Shown here: positions 21,001 through 30,000 of the stretch, in pieces | How positions within the stretch are numbered: the first letter of the stretch is position 1 | Layout of the letters: each line of letters opens with the position of its first letter | Source: a candidate division WOR-3 bacterium | GTDB taxonomy: Bacteria > Hydrothermota > 32-111 | Length of the DNA: 64,000 bases | Direction: 5' to 3' | Assembly: GCA_039804105.1 (NCBI GenBank) | Contig: JBDRZU010000001.1 | Location: 128,001-192,000 of the forward strand | Program-made: the position numbers

Positions 21001-24000
21001 AACCTTCATACTCATAGGTATAGTTTTACTTCTTCTTTCTTTTGGACTCATAACATATCTAAATCTGAAATATTCACCATCGGATCCGAATCCTCTACAT
21101 GTTGAGAAAGAGGTCAGAGAAAGGGATTATTTTTATGGCCCTTCCTATTTCTTATTTTTCTTTTTCTTCGCTTTTGGAATAAGAGAATTTTTTGAAAGAA
21201 CAAAAAACAGTAAAAATCGCATTAACTTTACATCAATATTTTTGATCATCTTTCTTGTTGTAATCTCTATTTCACCAATTTTTGCAAACATAAGGTCAAA
21301 TGCAAATAGGAGAAACAATTGGATTGCAGATGAATATGCGAAAAATATGCTTGATACACCAAGGGATAATGCTGTGATGTTTACAAATGGTGATAATGAT
21401 ACATATCCGCTCTGGTTTGAACAGGTTGTTAGAAATTATAGAACACTTGACCGAAAGAATCGTAAAGGTGTTATGGTATGTAACCTTTCACTTTTAAATA
21501 CTCCATGGTATATAAAACAGATGAAATCTTTTGGAGTTCCTATCAGTTTTACAGATGAAGAGATAGATAATCTTATGCCTGTCAGGATACCAAATGGAGA
21601 AATACTCTATGTTAGGGATCTTGCAATAAGAAATATGATTTGTACAACATCTGGAATAAAATGTACAAAAGATATTCTTTACTCAAGCACAGAGGAATTT
21701 AAAAAAAAGGTTCTTGATAATTACAAGGCCGATTCTATAGAAATATATTTTTCGGTTACAGTTTCAGATGATGCGAGAAATGCATACAAGCAGAATTCTG
21801 TTCTTGAAGGTTTAGCATACAGAATAGTTTCTACCGAAGAAGCAAAGAAATATCCTTATATGATAGATGTTGAAAGAACAAAACATAATATATATAACGT
21901 TTATAAATACAGATATATTCTTGATGAAAAAATTGTTAAAGATGATAACATAGATAGAATAATGACAAACTATGCTGCTGGATTTTTGCAGCTTGGAATA
22001 TACTATGCACAGATAGATTCACTTGAAAAATCAATTGAATATTTAAGAGAGGGCAGAAAATTTTATGTTTATGACAGAAACGCTGTTACCTTACAGATAA
22101 CAAGATTTCTTATGGATCTAGGGAAATATGAAGAGGCTGAGAAAGAGATAATATATGGTAAATCACTTGATAAAAAAGGAGAAAAGACACAGATATTCGA
22201 TTTTCTACTCGGACAGATATACTTGAAATTGAACGATTATCAAAAATCCTTGGAATTGTTCAAAAAGTATGTTGATTCTGATCCAAAAAATGCGATGTTT
22301 TTATCTGGTCTTATAAAAGTATATTATAAACAAGGGGATAATGCAAATTTTGAAAAGATCGTTCAGACTTTAAAAACCGATTTACAACTTCTCGGGAATA
22401 TCATAGGATTCTTTTATATGGAAAAAGAGGAACCTGAAATTTTAAACAGATTACTTGATCTATGGGATATTATAAAACCCGGTGATGAGCAGATACAGCA
22501 GATAAGAGAAGAGATAAAAACATGGGCGAAATAAAAACACATTAACCTGTGAAAAGGTAAAATATATGCCATTTTTAGGTGCACACCTATCAGTTTCTGA
22601 AGGTTTTTTAAAAATGTTTAAAACCGCTGATATGATCAAATGTTCAGCGGTTCAAATATTTGCTAAAAATCAGAGAAGATGGGAAAGTAAATTTTTTGAT
22701 TTAGAGGAAATAGATGATTTCAAGAAGGGCTTCAATTCTTCTAATGTCAAATATGTGAATATTCACGCTTCTTACCTTTTAAACCTTGCATCAAAAGATA
22801 AAGAGATTTTCAAAAAGAGTATAGATAATCTAATTGATGATCTCAAAAGGGCAGAGAAACTAAAAATAGATGATGTTGTTTTCCATCCAGGTAACCATCT
22901 TGGTGAAGGGGAAGAATACGGGATAAAAAGAGTTGCAGAAGGACTTAATATTGTATGTGAAAAGACCGATTTTGGGAACATACTCCTTGAAACGACAGCA
23001 GGACAGGGGAGTTCGATAGGGTACAGATTCGAACATTTAAGAGATATAATTGCAAAAACAAAGTATGAAAAGAGGTTGTTTGTCTGTTATGATACATGTC
23101 ATACTTTTGAAGCAGGTTATGATATCAGAGAAAAGGATGTCTTTGAAAAAACATTTGAATCTTTTGATAGAATAATAGGCCTGAAAAAATTAAAATTGTT
23201 CCATTTAAACGATTCTAAATATGATCTCAATATGAAAAAGGATAGACATGAATTCATCGGAAAAGGATTTTTAGGATTAAAATCTTTTGAAATACTTTTG
23301 AAAGATAAAAGGTTTAAATATCATCCGATGATTCTTGAAGTCCCGGGTGATGTTTCAGATTATGAGCACGATTTAAAAATTTTGTATTCTCTGTTATGAA
23401 AGTTTTAAAGATTTTTCTTCCAATTCTAATCTTCATATATATTTTTTCTCAGGATGTATTGAATCTTGAAAAAAAATTTCTTGAATACAAAAAGGAATTT
23501 GATGGATATAAACAGTTGATTGAATTTGATGAGGTCAATAACCTTGTTATTTTCAAAAGTTTCTATAAAGATTATTTTTTAGGAATAGATTCGCTAAAAA
23601 CAAAAGAGATCTATTTCGCACAGAAAAATGAAAAGATGATCAGAGAAATGTTGACTGCGAATTTCAAAGAATCGTTTAGAACTTCAACTTCAACTGGTCT
23701 TATAGGTGATATAGACATCCCTATAACTTTTGGTAAGATGAAATCATTTTTTGGTGAAGGTGGAAAACTCGTTGTGGAAGGTTCCGAAAGGATAGATTAT
23801 TCGGGTAGTAAAACTTTTGACCTTACTGCTATTGAAAAAGGAACCGCTAATATTTCGTGGATTCCTGAGTTTATGCTTAAACAACAACTTATAGTCAATG
23901 TGACTGGGAGTGTCGGAGACAGGATAAAAGTTAATCTGAAACATAATAGTGAAACTGAAAAAAAATCTGACAATACTGTTGTTCTTGAATACAAAGGACT

Positions 24001-27000: not shown

Positions 27001-30000
27001 AAATTTTAACAGCAATTATAGATTTTCTTTCTCATTAAATGGTGAAAAACTTTTGCCTGAATTTTTTGGAATCATTTCACCTGTAACTTTCTCCTATTCA
27101 AAATCGACTAACAGACCTGTGTACTATATTGGTTCAGATTACACTCTTACACAGGAAGAGATCAAAAGATTTTCAAATTTCACAACATCTTCAAATTTCA
27201 GTGCAAGTGTTAAGAGGTCAAATAATTTCACGAACAGATTTTTACATTATATTTTTGATATTCCTTCATTATCCTATACGAATTCATCATCTAATAATTT
27301 GACATATAATAGAACAGATTCGACAAAAACAAATTCTGTTTCTTCAAATTTTGGTTACAACTTTAACATTTTACCACTAAAAATTTTAAGAAATTTTGAA
27401 TTTTTTTATTTCCCATCCAATATTACTTATAACCTTTCCTATTCAACAAATGAAACAAAATCATTTTTGCTTGGAGAGAATGGTTTTGTGAATGTTGGAG
27501 GAAATTTTTTGAAGAATTTTAACAGATCCTTTTCAACAAGATACAAGATTTTCAGATCTCTCGAACTGAATTATTCGGATAGTAAAATACATGATCTTTT
27601 ACAGAAGAATAATGAATTCTTGGGATTTTTAGGAAAAAAAATTGGAGAGAACAATAGTATTAATATCAACTATAACCCCGTGTTTATAAGATATTTGACT
27701 CACTCGTTAAATATTACGACAAATTATTCTGAGAGAAACAACAGTAATCTTTATTCTCTTGATTCTTTATTTTCAACAGATCTTTCTCAAAACACAAGGT
27801 TATCCTTGAATGGAAACTTTGATTATGCAAAGATATTAAAACTTGTTACTCAACTCAGAGACGAATCAAAAGATTCTATCGCTTTGACTGGATCTCCTCA
27901 CTGGATTGCTATTTACTTTGAAAAATTTTTGAACAATTTTTCCGGTCTAAACTATTCGTTTTCTACGAATAGAACTTTATCTTTCAACTATGTTAAAGGA
28001 AATCCATCGTTCTTGTTTAAAGTAGGTGTTTTTGATAGTTTGCCATCCGATTACTTTTCTTCATATTCCCAGGTAAGAAACAACAATAACTATTCATATT
28101 CTTTTTCATCTGGTTTTTCGATATGGAATTTTGATGTCAGAGGTTCATATTCGTTTTCTTTTAACAGGAGTGCACAGAACCAGAATATAATTAAGGATAC
28201 GAATAAAAAGTGGCCAAACATCTCTTTAACATTATCTAATATTGAGCAGATAAAACCTCTTTATAAGTTTTTTAGATATTTGAATGCTTCAACAAGTGTT
28301 TCTAAAGGTGAAATATTCTCTTTTATGAATGATACAATTTTGAACAGAAACAGTAATTCTCTAGACTTTTATCCACTTATAGGGTTATCAGGTGCAACAT
28401 TTTTCAATTTGAATTTCAATTACAATTTTAACTATACAAATTCTGTTTCGAATTCTTATTCAGGGATTGAACTTTCGCGAGAAAATAAAACATATTCGAA
28501 CACTCTATCTTTCAACTATGCTTTTTCTTCACCATCGGGTATAAATATACCTATTATCAATAAAGTTCTAAAATTCAAATCAACTTTAAACACTGGAATA
28601 GATTTCTCTTATACGAAAGTTCAGGATCTTGACATTACCAACAACAATCTTGTCGAGGATAAAATCCTTTATGATATCAAACCTAGAGCGGATTACAATT
28701 TCACCAACAATGTATCAGGTGGTATTAACTTCACATTTTCAAGAAGTGAAGATAGAAAGAGGGGAGATAAGAGACAACTTATAAGTTTGGGGTTCTGGAC
28801 TCTGTTTAGATTTTAATCTCTTCTATTGTCTTTTCAACAAAAAAGTTTTATAATTATAATAATGAAAAAGGATAAAACTTTTTTTTATCTACTGATTTTT
28901 CTGTTTTCCTTTTTACTTTTCTGGTTTTTTGTTTCAGTTATTGTGAATGTAGTCCTTGATAAACTTATTGATATAAATCTTAAAAATAAAAGTGAAAGAT
29001 ACCTTCAACAAACACTATCCAACCAGCAGATTTCTTTGATCGATGAGGATCTGGTTGCTGTGATAGTTTTTGATAATGAAAATTTCTATCAAAATAGTAT
29101 AATTTACAAAAATGATATGTTTGAGGTGAATGATCTTTCATCCTATCCCAAAATTTATAAATACAATCTTCCAAATGAGAATAGATCAATACTTTTTGTA
29201 TATAAAGAAACCCAATCAAAATTTAGATTCGCTTTAATCTTACAATTTATTTTTGGTAGTGCACTGTTCGTATTTATCCTTTATTTTATGTTCGTTTTAA
29301 AAGATAGGAGACAAAAAAGTATTTTGAGTATTGTCGAATCTATAAAAAATGGTGAATTTGATAATAAAAATGAGAGTGATGAATTCTATGATTTATTCTC
29401 GACTATAAATGAGATAGTAAAAAAGAAGGAAAGTGAAATTGATAGGTTAAAAGGAGTTATAAGTATTTTAAAGGATCAGAATTTTTCTTTAAAGGAGATG
29501 GATAGTGCAAAATCAAGTGTAATTGAAAATATTTCTCATGAATTGAAAACTCCATTAACTAAAATAAAAGGTTATCTTGAGTACATGTATTCTGAAAAAA
29601 TGGGAGAATTGCAGCCAGCTCAAAAGGATGCTTTAACTGTTGTTATAAAAAATGTCAACTCAATACTAAATCAGATTGATAAAATAATAAAATATGCAAA
29701 ATCAGAATACATAAACCTTGAAAGAGAAATTTTTGATCTTAGAAAAGTTTTAAAAGATATTGTTGACACATATATTCCTATTTCGAATGAAAAAAATATC
29801 AAGATTGTTCTTGATACTTCAAATCTTGAAACTCCCATTTATGCCGATAAGAATGCTCTTGTAGAAGCATTAGATAACATAATAAATAATGCCTTGAAAT
29901 TCACTCAAAAGGATGGTAATATTACTATAACAGGATATGAAAAAATGGATAACAACAATCTTTATGCTGTGATAAGAGTTGAGGATACAGGAATTGGAAT

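Follow-up and report, generated by a model that had tools for sequence, protein, structure and literature searches.

The window, a 64,000-nucleotide stretch of a Hydrothermota genome assembly, contains an unannotated gene for a homolog of SprA/Sov, preceded by genes for a TMEM260-like glycosyltransferase and a TIM-barrel protein and followed by a kinase, receiver and EAL phosphodiesterase cluster, with a candidate cargo protein encoded further along on the opposite strand (Table 1). The source organism is a hot-spring bacterium.

Table 1. The sprA/sov homolog, its neighbours and a candidate cargo gene, in positions of the window.
Feature	Position	Strand	Remarks
TMEM260-like GT-C glycosyltransferase, 900 aa	19832..22534	+	Pfam TMEM260-like, 146.6 bits; C-terminal TPR region (residues 791–847)
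AP_endonuc_2/xylose-isomerase-like TIM-barrel gene	22566..23399	+	Pfam, 168.6 bits; 4-base overlap with the start of sprA
sprA/sov homolog, 1806 aa	23396..28816	+	Predicted outer-membrane translocon of a T9SS-like pathway; ATG start
Histidine kinase (465 aa), CheY-like receiver (130 aa), EAL phosphodiesterase (436 aa)	28826..31916	+	Pfam HisKA/HATPase_c, Response_reg, EAL; directly downstream of sprA
Candidate cargo protein, 718 aa	37768..39924	-	Signal-like N-terminus MKKFFLILSIFICFIFSFQ; weak C-terminal T9SS type-A tail

The SprA/Sov homolog and its gene neighbourhood

The product of the sprA/sov homolog begins with a signal-peptide-like N-terminus (MKVLKIFLPILIFIYIFSQD...) and ends in ...GFWTLFRF; an outer-membrane barrel is compatible with this signal peptide and with the terminal ...WTLFRF. 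The surface_SprA model TIGR04189, which has a curated cut-off of 200 bits, matches the protein with 358.3 bits (E 7.9e-107) in four stretches, and a six-frame search of the genome returns the gene at 354.7 bits over model positions 42–1716, the same values from which an earlier note had recognized the unannotated protein as a diverged SprA/Sov. The weak second match of 26 bits reported there was also recovered, on contig 2, and the protein concerned has a 60-residue module in common with SprA and nothing more. A 29-bit match to Pfam SprA_N did not reappear: the Pfam scan of the protein at E ≤ 0.01 listed DUF2460 alone, and SprA_N thus goes undetected at this threshold, a difference from Flavobacterium johnsoniae SprA.

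When the single sequence is compared with SprA of PDB entry 6h3i by phmmer, the similarity (E 6e-19) is confined to residues 512–702. A family profile, built from 18 members with the 1806-residue protein among them, aligns with 6h3i_A in one stretch that joins profile positions 4–1860 to chain residues 3–2379 (E 1.1e-300), demonstrating whole-length homology of the family to F. johnsoniae SprA (PDB 6H3I, 6H3J, 8GL6) and Porphyromonas gingivalis Sov. SprA in 6H3I is a giant outer-membrane β-barrel of 36 strands. In both proteins a signal peptide is present and the C-terminal residue is aromatic, and PorV-family carriers and tailed cargo are encoded in the genome; in contrast, the Hydrothermota protein is about 600 residues shorter (1806 versus 2403) and comes without the motor, ring, PorP/SprF and lipopolysaccharide partners. 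Judged from these alignments, the gene encodes a genuine but short SprA/Sov-family translocon. SprA of this type, 1700–2000 residues long across the phylum, is carried by 147 of 150 sampled phylum genomes, 120 of 121 high-quality genomes and all 76 genera, and the dN/dS of 0.049 at a dS of 0.6 against the closest relative indicates purifying selection.

Among 11 related sprA loci, 10 retain the upstream flank, and in all of these (L007, L117–L125) the TMEM260-like gene either adjoins sprA or is separated from it by a single gene; the gene is absent as a sprA neighbour from 18 more distant phylum loci. This glycosyltransferase is a conserved upstream neighbour within the family, and its membership in the secretion system is uncertain. 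The AP_endonuc_2 gene, found upstream of sprA in 8 of the 11 loci, is probably unrelated housekeeping. On the other side, the spacings from sprA through the kinase and receiver to the EAL gene are 10, −17 and 6 bases (a negative value denotes overlap). The kinase follows sprA in just the five loci with a SprA identity of at least 70% (L007, L117–L120), and the cluster may represent a regulatory link to sprA at the genus level only.

Predicted cargo and carriers, and the cell envelope

The earlier note had counted at least 35 proteins with type-A tails, and the number proves higher: TIGR04183 yields 56 six-frame matches at E ≤ 0.01 in the genome, 48 of them over the cut-off. Of these matches, 54 were mapped to open reading frames; in 52 no more than 12 residues separate the end of the tail match from the C-terminus, and 50 of the 54 frames have a signal-like N-terminus. 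The tail of the 718-residue protein in the window scores 19.6 bits (E 0.00145; cut-off 23) at C1:165801-165938 and ends 10 residues before the C-terminus.

As claimed before, three PorV/PorQ-family proteins are present, all over the family cut-off of 90 bits (NF033709; 203.6, 175.6 and 91.7 bits), and the best PorV-equivalog score, 137 bits, lies below the equivalog cut-off of 250. One PorV-family gene is clustered with a Plug-domain receptor and three tailed proteins (C1:933977-945184), an arrangement of receptor and tailed enzymes that resembles a nutrient-uptake locus. Two PorU-like C25 peptidases match positions 6–745 of the 1095-position PorU model (NF033707), scoring 240.7 and 207.5 bits, under the equivalog cut-off of 420. 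Both retain the His/Cys dyad, the residues of which do not vary among five PorU proteins with full scores. The nine C25 peptidases listed previously were not reproduced; a crude home-made HMM found five.

The presence of BamA and TamA/TamB-like proteins indicates an ordinary outer membrane. The gene after bamA encodes an OmpH/Skp protein of 327 residues with about 145 extra C-terminal residues, and the seven proteins scanned among 18 lipoprotein-signal reading frames of at least 350 residues included one TPR protein, a BamD-like protein of 445 residues. Genome searches for LpxC and LpxB gave best scores of 12 and 14.3 bits, both far below the cut-offs, in agreement with the reported absence of lipid A; as neither gene was found, the A-LPS anchor is considered absent.

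Motor and ring components in the genome and across FCB lineages

No GldK, GldL, GldM, GldN or PorP/SprF is detectable in the genome, as had been stated for the first four, where absence refers to homologs visible to HMMs and does not cover an energiser that is unrelated or has diverged very far. The best matches to GldM (TIGR03517) and GldL (TIGR03513) have E-values of 0.39 and 0.155, and GldK (TIGR03525) and GldN (TIGR03523) give nothing at E ≤ 10. Nothing exceeds the cut-offs of PF22827 and PF12081 (GldL/GldM), PF19841, which examines the GldK/GldN ring, has no match, and PorP_SprF (PF11751) has none at E ≤ 1. Queries with Prevotella PorK, PorL, PorM, PorN and PorP by phmmer --max and tblastn reached 14 bits at best, on a PpiD-like chaperone. 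As positive controls, the same models pick up the Prevotella porPKLMN operon and give positive genomes in another phylum sample (19 of 81) and in a panel of 23 genomes (2 of 23). Within the phylum, GldL_N occurs at E ≤ 0.01 in none of 150 genomes, 121 of them of high quality; since 147 of the 150 carry this type of SprA, the 85% completeness of the assembly does not account for the missing motor.

The panel of 23 genomes was picked because its members bear SprA; its phylum labels, which are approximate as some record titles are unreliable, include KSB1, Calditrichota, Marinimicrobia, Ignavibacteria, Fidelibacterota, Zixibacteria and Latescibacterota, together with TA06-type genomes. GldK, GldL, GldM and GldN are lacking in 21 of these 23 FCB genomes, and only those of Prevotella and Paludibacter have them. 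SprA, PorV-family barrels, PorU-like peptidases and tails occur together in every panel genome, with PorV-like genes in 23 of 23 and PorU over its cut-off in 18, and porU adjoins porV in several (G012, G013, G014, G005 and G006, for example). In the 81-genome sample, taken from a phylum with an Ignavibacteria genome, GldL_N is missing from 45 of the 64 SprA_N-positive genomes; the SprA_N E-values are 1e-137 or better in GldL-positive genomes and 1e-19 to 1e-104 in GldL-negative ones.

A motor-less core is therefore likely to be the general, ancestral state of SprA systems, and, because FCB lineages other than the Bacteroidia-type clade ordinarily have this make-up, the motor and ring were more probably gained in that clade than lost in the Hydrothermota genome. 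The earlier note had described a working, stripped-down T9SS without a motor: the parts are present and the motor goes undetected, but "stripped-down", in the sense of a loss particular to the lineage, is probably wrong, since the motor-less pattern is not special to the Hydrothermota lineage.

The genome shares several parts with the canonical Bacteroidota T9SS: the translocon, the carrier family, signal-peptide proteins whose type-A tails sit at the very C-terminus, and a putative tail peptidase of the C25 type in which the His/Cys dyad is intact. It lacks GldK, GldL, GldM, GldN, PorP/SprF, LpxC and LpxB, and its PorV and PorU fall under the equivalog cut-offs. Outside the Bacteroidota, type-A tails are described as an FCB-wide marker in the accessible portion of one report (PMC4737851), and that of another proposes the tails of Fibrobacter succinogenes as secretion signals, with mass spectrometry suggesting their removal (PMC6851124). 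TIGR04183-tailed proteins are known, as here, among F. succinogenes cellulases and in 'Candidatus Kryptonia'; the accessible portions of these papers count tails, and neither list machine components nor report the motor and ring as absent. No paper stating the motor-less SprA pattern was found in the literature.

A possible export route and its energetics

SprA/Sov is probably the translocon of a core type-9-like pathway that operates without the GldL/GldM motor, the GldK/GldN ring or track, and PorP/SprF. About 50 proteins, each bearing a Sec signal peptide as well as a type-A tail, would be exported to the periplasm, and inside the SprA pore the tail would dock against a barrel of the PorV family, the carrier; the carrier–cargo complex would then depart from the pore, and the PorU-like C25 cysteine peptidase, by its predicted activity, would cut off the tail. 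The cargo could be released or kept on the surface by an anchor other than lipopolysaccharide, as the lipid A genes were not found. Removal of the carrier–cargo complex from SprA, the motor step in Flavobacterium, would proceed without a dedicated inner-membrane motor; the carrier might bind more weakly, or tail cleavage and folding on the outside might act as a ratchet. SprA, the PorV and PorU-like parts and the tails would thereby act together in secretion, and their conservation and the purifying selection (dN/dS 0.05) suggest a working system. The scores of PorV (137 against 250 bits) and PorU (241 against 420 bits) under the equivalog cut-offs count against this explanation.

Type 5 autotransporters, two-partner secretion and the curli (type 8) system are Sec-dependent two-step export routes with a single outer-membrane barrel, in which neither ATP nor proton motive force acts at the outer membrane and binding or folding outside sets the direction. 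By analogy, the SprA system may work alike, although there is no homology, SprA is far larger than these barrels, cargo is handed off to carrier proteins, and a motor is needed in the studied species. According to Lauber et al. 2024 (PMC10994853), loading of SprA with substrate is energy-free and energy is needed for substrate extraction alone. The two organisms that have been studied cannot secrete without the motor, the ring and SprE (PMC10994853, PMC12635249), so a motor-free version contradicts the sole experimental models.

A wider proposal, which we put forward tentatively and with some doubt, is that the SprA–PorV–PorU core is self-sufficient and ancestral to the whole FCB group, moving folded cargo without inner-membrane energy, and that one Bacteroidota clade acquired the GldKLMN motor and track late, perhaps along with gliding motility. 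If so, intrinsically motor-driven type 9 secretion would be a derived special case.

The core pathway could instead be energised by a machine other than GldLM, either ExbB–ExbD–ExbD–TonB or an undescribed inner-membrane machine, that pulls the carrier–cargo complex off SprA, which we regard as unlikely. Such a machine would meet the energy requirement for extraction seen in Flavobacterium (PMC10994853). The genome also has a single MotA/ExbB-type stator, whose gene comes after a DUF4388 (PATAN) gene and four small ones that match no Pfam family, and about 2 kb separate a PorV-family gene from a second TonB_C domain, which is part of a fusion with a solute-binding lipoprotein. The clustering of a PorV-family gene with a Plug-domain receptor and tailed proteins points the same way, except that the cluster appears to serve nutrient uptake. 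No positive evidence was obtained for ExbBD–TonB as the motor, an idea raised in the earlier note: the operon is an ordinary exbB-exbD-exbD-tonB unit, unlinked to sprA, porV or porU in the genome, its TonB has normal clients in four Plug-domain proteins, and the conserved neighbours of sprA in 20 phylum loci include no motor-like gene. An FCB-wide DUF6754 membrane machine lies beside the exbB operon, but it cannot be a general energiser because only 10 of the 23 SprA-bearing panel genomes have it.

That homologs of GldL, GldM, GldK and GldN are present but too diverged for sequence models is highly improbable. The TIGRFAM and Pfam motor models rest mainly on Bacteroidia-type sequences, SprA_N scores fall steeply outside that clade, and PorV and PorU of this genome likewise score under their equivalog cut-offs; yet models of the same origin find SprA, PorV and PorU at 1e-40 to 1e-107 and nothing for the four motor and ring families. 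Furthermore, GldL_N is absent throughout the 150 phylum genomes, the genome has no FGE-sulfatase domain and no gene pair with the two-TM, GldL-like and one-TM, GldM-like topology, and a feature search with Prevotella PorL revealed no look-alike cluster outside its own family (best 0.84, against a lead level of 0.9).

Finally, it is barely conceivable that the SprA homolog is not the pore for the tailed proteins, which would use another export route or carry tails that are surface-anchor or Ig-like domains while SprA has a different outer-membrane role: the only experimental support known outside the Bacteroidota is an indirect mass-spectrometry sign of tail removal in F. succinogenes (PMC6851124), but the four components occur jointly in every panel genome, porU and porV are adjacent in several, and the family profile aligns with the solved SprA over its whole length.

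The sprA gene and the outer-membrane components

The sprA gene lies in a window with a G+C content of ~30% and is an uninterrupted open reading frame of 1806 codons, whose product begins with the signal-peptide-like segment MKVLKIFLPILIFIYIFSQD and ends in ...GFWTLFRF. The NCBIfam model for the T9SS outer membrane translocon Sov/SprA (TIGR04189) matches the protein with 358.3 bits (E 7.9e-107), over a curated cut-off of 200, and a six-frame search of the genome reproduced exactly the three collinear pieces of the earlier note (model 42–1716, 354.7 bits). In a single-sequence search of the PDB, the sole match is Flavobacterium johnsoniae SprA 6h3i (E 6e-19, residues 512–702), and a profile of 18 family members, window SprA included, aligns with 6h3i in one stretch (profile 4–1860 to residues 3–2379, E 1.1e-300), so that the homology spans the entire protein. 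A previously claimed Pfam SprA_N match was not recovered: at E ≤ 0.01 the Pfam scan gave a DUF2460 match below threshold and nothing else. Precomputed Pfam annotation is also lacking for the 99%-identical cluster, and PF14349 is present in relatives at ≤83% identity. The weak match on contig 2 (26 bits) was found again, and the 1010-aa protein concerned, which has no Pfam family, was rejected as a second SprA because the shared part is a 60-residue module only (hhalign probability 94.8).

SprA of the P0001 type was detected in 147 of the 150 genomes sampled from the phylum, in 120 of the 121 of high quality, and in 76 of 76 genera and 35 families, mostly as open frames of 1700–2000 aa. The dN/dS ratio against the closest relative is 0.049 at a dS of 0.6. 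sprA belongs to the constrained core genes of the phylum and, taken as a gene, is typical of the SprA family. The nearest named relative is candidate division TA06 bacterium 32_111 (83% SprA identity), remoter homologs are titled Candidatus Stahlbacteria, and sprA DNA is present in five sequencing runs, all of hot-spring metagenome DNA, with no RNA dataset listed as containing the gene.

The neighbours of sprA were compared in 20 loci of the phylum (18 distant loci, the window, and the further locus L007), and no motor-like conserved neighbour was found. The genes that do adjoin it are housekeeping genes (DXS, polyprenyl synthase, FolD, HtrA, PBP2, PdxA, an M28 peptidase, and a secretin). Eight of the 20 loci (L157, L159–L163, L166, and L169) have, just downstream and in the same orientation, a gene for a ComEA-like HHH_3 protein of 105–159 aa, which in six of them follows sprA directly. 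The TMEM260-like gene upstream of sprA adjoins it also in related genera of the family (49–56% SprA identity), in two of them without an intervening gene, and its product could glycosylate periplasmic or secreted proteins. The histidine kinase gene downstream is conserved in this position within the genus only.

The cargo and the remaining outer-membrane components are also encoded in the genome (1.81 Mb in two contigs, 85% complete, 0.03% contaminated). Type-A C-terminal sorting domains (TIGR04183), hereafter tails, gave 56 six-frame matches at E ≤ 0.01, and the 48 over the cut-off bear out the claim of at least 35 tailed proteins. All but two of the 56 matches (54) fall inside called open reading frames; 52 of these 54 end 0–12 residues from the C-terminus, and a signal-like hydrophobic N-terminal segment is found in 50. 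The signal peptides of the tailed proteins are not enriched for the Bacteroidota "Q-rule": a Q close to the predicted cleavage site is seen in 12 of these 50, versus 179 of 653 signal-like proteins overall. An NCBIfam scan of 37 envelope proteins placed three over the PorV/PorQ family cut-off, in agreement with the earlier count, and a further two lower down (55.8 and 35.8 bits). The PorU sortase model picks out two large proteins, whose 240.7 and 207.5 bits fall short of the cut-off of 420. Both retain the His and Cys residues (H776/C811 and H724/C758) that never vary among five full-score PorU proteins. The first, of 1226 aa, is itself tailed. The second PorU-like gene overlaps by 4 bases the open reading frame behind it, whose 322-aa outer-membrane-like product ends in ...GVAYLF and has no Pfam or NCBIfam family; this product may be a diverged PorV/PorQ-type partner.

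The genome encodes BamA (464 bits) and TamA/TamB-like proteins. C25 peptidases numbered five with our own small HMM, where nine had been counted before. Neither LpxC nor LpxB was found in the genome, which agrees with the lack of lipid A stated in the earlier note. Downstream of bamA, the Skp/OmpH protein carries a C-terminal extension of ~145 residues, and in this it is reminiscent of SkpA in the Flavobacterium translocon, which is likewise extended at its C-terminus (PMC10994853).

Coordinates of the features discussed (C1 and C2, contigs 1 and 2 of the window's own genome)
Feature	Location	Strand	Length (aa)	Match or composition
sprA	window 23396-28816	+	1806
TMEM260-like GT-C glycosyltransferase	window 19832-22534	+	900	~11 predicted TM helices, C-terminal TPR region; just upstream of sprA
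Histidine kinase, stand-alone receiver, EAL c-di-GMP phosphodiesterase	window 28826-31916	+		packed right after sprA; then mutL, miaA
Prepilin-motif protein and its neighbour	window 4470-8554	-	859 (prepilin-motif), 497 (neighbour)	prepilin-type N-methylation motif, SdrD B-like domain
Skp/OmpH protein	C1:91354-92337	+	327	OmpH domain 37-181
PorV/PorQ-family barrel	C1:419330-420418			203.6 bits
PorV/PorQ-family barrel	C1:935888-936940			175.6 bits
PorV/PorQ-family barrel	C2:402501-403454			91.7 bits
Second PorU-like protein and the reading frame behind it	C1:873300-878770	-	1501 (PorU-like), 322 (neighbour)	no tail detected in the PorU-like protein
Weak PorV-family locus	C1:394354-400817	-	292 (barrel), 806 (neighbour)	barrel 35.8 bits
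Tailed-protein cluster	C1:933977-945184	-	1050 (receptor-like)	three tailed proteins, PorV/PorQ barrel (175.6 bits), Plug domain
Solute-binding/TonB_C fusion	C2:398384-400495	-	703	lipoprotein-type signal, family-5 solute-binding domain (263 bits), C-terminal TonB_C (68 bits)

Searches for the motor and the ring

The components of the proton motor (GldL/PorL and GldM/PorM) and of the ring (GldK/PorK and GldN/PorN) were sought in the genome by several routes. With the family models, the best E values in the genome are 0.39 for GldM and 0.155 for GldL, GldK and GldN have no match at E ≤ 10, and neither PorP_SprF nor an FGE-sulfatase domain of any kind was found; the Pfam models GldL_N and GldM_1st gave nothing over the cut-off. 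Prevotella PorK, PorL, PorM, PorN, and PorP, compared with the genome by phmmer --max and tblastn, gave a best match of only 14 bits. This top phmmer match of PorM (E 0.0014) was rejected, as the 591-aa protein appears, from its N-terminal TM segment and parvulin-like stretch, to be a PpiD-type chaperone. A topology scan of the genome for a GldLM-like pair (a two-TM protein beside a single-TM protein of ~500 aa) yielded 23 candidate adjacencies, none of which fits; in the two that lie inside the window, Pfam identified one NfeD domain, and its single-TM neighbour has no Pfam family. A Protein Atlas feature search with Prevotella PorL, GldL_N clusters excluded, reached 0.82–0.84 at best, under the tool's lead level. 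As positive controls, the same models detect the Prevotella porP-K-L-M-N operon, both true Bacteroidia genomes of the panel described below, and 19 of 81 genomes of another sample.

The profile, phmmer, tblastn, and topology searches agree, none of them having detected a homolog of K, L, M, N, or PorP. Incompleteness of the assembly (85%) had been named as a possible cause, and it does not explain the absence, since GldL_N, the one motor/ring model applied to the larger sample, is found at E ≤ 0.01 in none of 150 genomes of the phylum, of which 121 are of high quality and four are same-genus genomes of 95–100% completeness. The observation of a motor-less system is confirmed and robust.

Distribution among FCB lineages

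In five papers (PMC4793230, PMC9127263, PMC11205867, PMC12635249, and PMC10994853), the T9SS is a trans-envelope machine with the proton motor and the ring as core essentials, and is either treated as special to Bacteroidota or placed, vaguely, in "the FCB superphylum". Abby et al. 2016 (PMC4793230) report it in Bacteroidetes only, with GldK, L, M, and N profiles among the model components, and the reviews PMC11205867 and PMC9127263 name the superphylum without a component list. The tail domain is used as an FCB marker (PMC4737851), the mature proteins of Fibrobacter succinogenes are reported to lose the tail (PMC6851124), and PorX is said to be confined to the FCB group (PMC9757075). No statement that SprA, PorV, and PorU are widespread without the motor and ring was found in the full-text literature searched, which excludes subscription papers.

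Of 598 candidate stretches, scanned at one genome per species with a narrow SprA alignment, 583 contain SprA relatives, under record titles of KSB1, Calditrichota, Marinimicrobia/Neomarinimicrobiota, Ignavibacteria, Zixibacteria, Latescibacterota, Fidelibacterota, and Bacteroidota. A panel of 23 genomes (22 loci and the window genome) was picked for carrying SprA, with long contigs preferred. PorV-like proteins (E ≤ 1e-5) are present in 23/23 and PorU over the equivalog cut-off in 18/23, often with the two genes adjacent; the five in which PorU stays under that cut-off comprise three TA06-type genomes and two ~1-Mb Marinimicrobia. GldM (TIGR03517), GldN, and, over their cut-offs, GldL_N, GldM_1st, and GldK are each positive in 2/23, always Prevotella and Paludibacter, and the GldK matches of eight other genomes are partial FGE-sulfatase matches of <100 bits. 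The description of a "stripped-down" T9SS peculiar to this lineage is therefore unsupported, as K, L, M, and N occur in only two of the 23.

A second sample comprised 81 genomes, filtered at 90% completeness, from the phylum to which one of the Ignavibacteria panel genomes belongs. SprA_N is present in 64 and GldL_N over the cut-off in 19, all 19 being among the SprA_N carriers; the other 45 carriers lack GldL_N (one has a sub-threshold match of 23.1 bits), as do the 17 genomes without SprA_N. In a SprA tree (fast MAFFT, 1690 columns, FastTree, midpoint root), Prevotella and Paludibacter form one clade beside Ignavibacteria-type sequences, and the other FCB phyla and the phylum of the window genome fall outside, with weak support at the deep nodes (0.14–0.34). 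From the panel, the second sample, and the tree, a single gain of the motor in the Bacteroidia-type clade is a more parsimonious account than repeated loss, with the root of the tree not established. The locus L028 (titled Flavobacteriales) and L081 (Chitinophagales) group with Marinimicrobia and Ignavibacteria sequences, a placement that makes the record titles not fully reliable; the genomes G016 (titled Bacteroidota) and G017 (Bacteroidia) are without GldKLMN, and some MAG titles are probably wrong.

The outer-membrane half of the system (pore, carrier, tail peptidase, and tailed cargo) is near-universal and strongly conserved in at least one whole candidate phylum, and many other FCB lineages also possess it and show no sign of the motor half.

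Energy supply and associated loci

According to Lauber et al. 2024 (PMC10994853), a substrate is loaded onto SprA-PorV without energy, and extraction of the carrier–substrate complex requires the motor, SprE, and SkpA; Liu et al. 2025 (PMC12635249) describe an "Energy Chain" with a moving GldK-containing track at its end. The motor parts and the GldK track described there are those absent from the window genome. Of the earlier reading, a T9SS-like core without K, L, M, and N stands, and for this core we infer a secretory function; the "stripped-down" label and the proposed ExbBD-TonB power are unsupported.

A pathway without a dedicated inner-membrane motor is favoured, in view of the checks on ExbBD-TonB, on a DUF6754 membrane machine, and on the neighbours of sprA. 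Secretion driven by an unnamed energiser is a serious rival to it. ExbBD-TonB is the sole MotA/ExbB-type stator in the genome; as a power source it is unsupported, since exbB-exbD-exbD-tonB forms a normal operon, preceded by a DUF4388 gene and by four small genes without a Pfam family, the four Plug-domain receptors of the genome are ordinary TonB clients, and no linkage to sprA, porV, or porU was found in the genome. The DUF6754 machine, encoded beside the exbB operon, was rejected as a general energiser because it occurs in only 10 of the 23 SprA-bearing panel genomes and is missing from the two KSB1 genomes and the three Ignavibacteria genomes.

If the motor-free systems secrete, the minimal type 9 system would be far smaller than believed, the energy-requiring extraction step would be solved in another way, and the origin of the motor could be dated to one clade. 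The tails would then predict the secreted proteases and hydrolases of abundant uncultured bacteria of sediments, oceans, and hot springs, and the motor-free question would be open to test in cultured SprA carriers that are GldLM-negative.

On contig 2, the solute-binding/TonB_C fusion, an unusual domain combination, lies ~2 kb from a PorV/PorQ gene. On contig 1, the weak PorV-family barrel stands beside a barrel-like protein whose N-terminal part bears a ComEA-like HHH_3 domain, with a tailed ExeM/NucH-like nuclease alongside, and the cluster that contains a Plug-domain receptor-like protein resembles a nutrient-uptake locus that relies on secreted enzymes. In the window, the prepilin-motif protein may be a giant pseudopilin-like surface protein, and its 497-aa neighbour has a hydrophobic N-terminus and no Pfam family.
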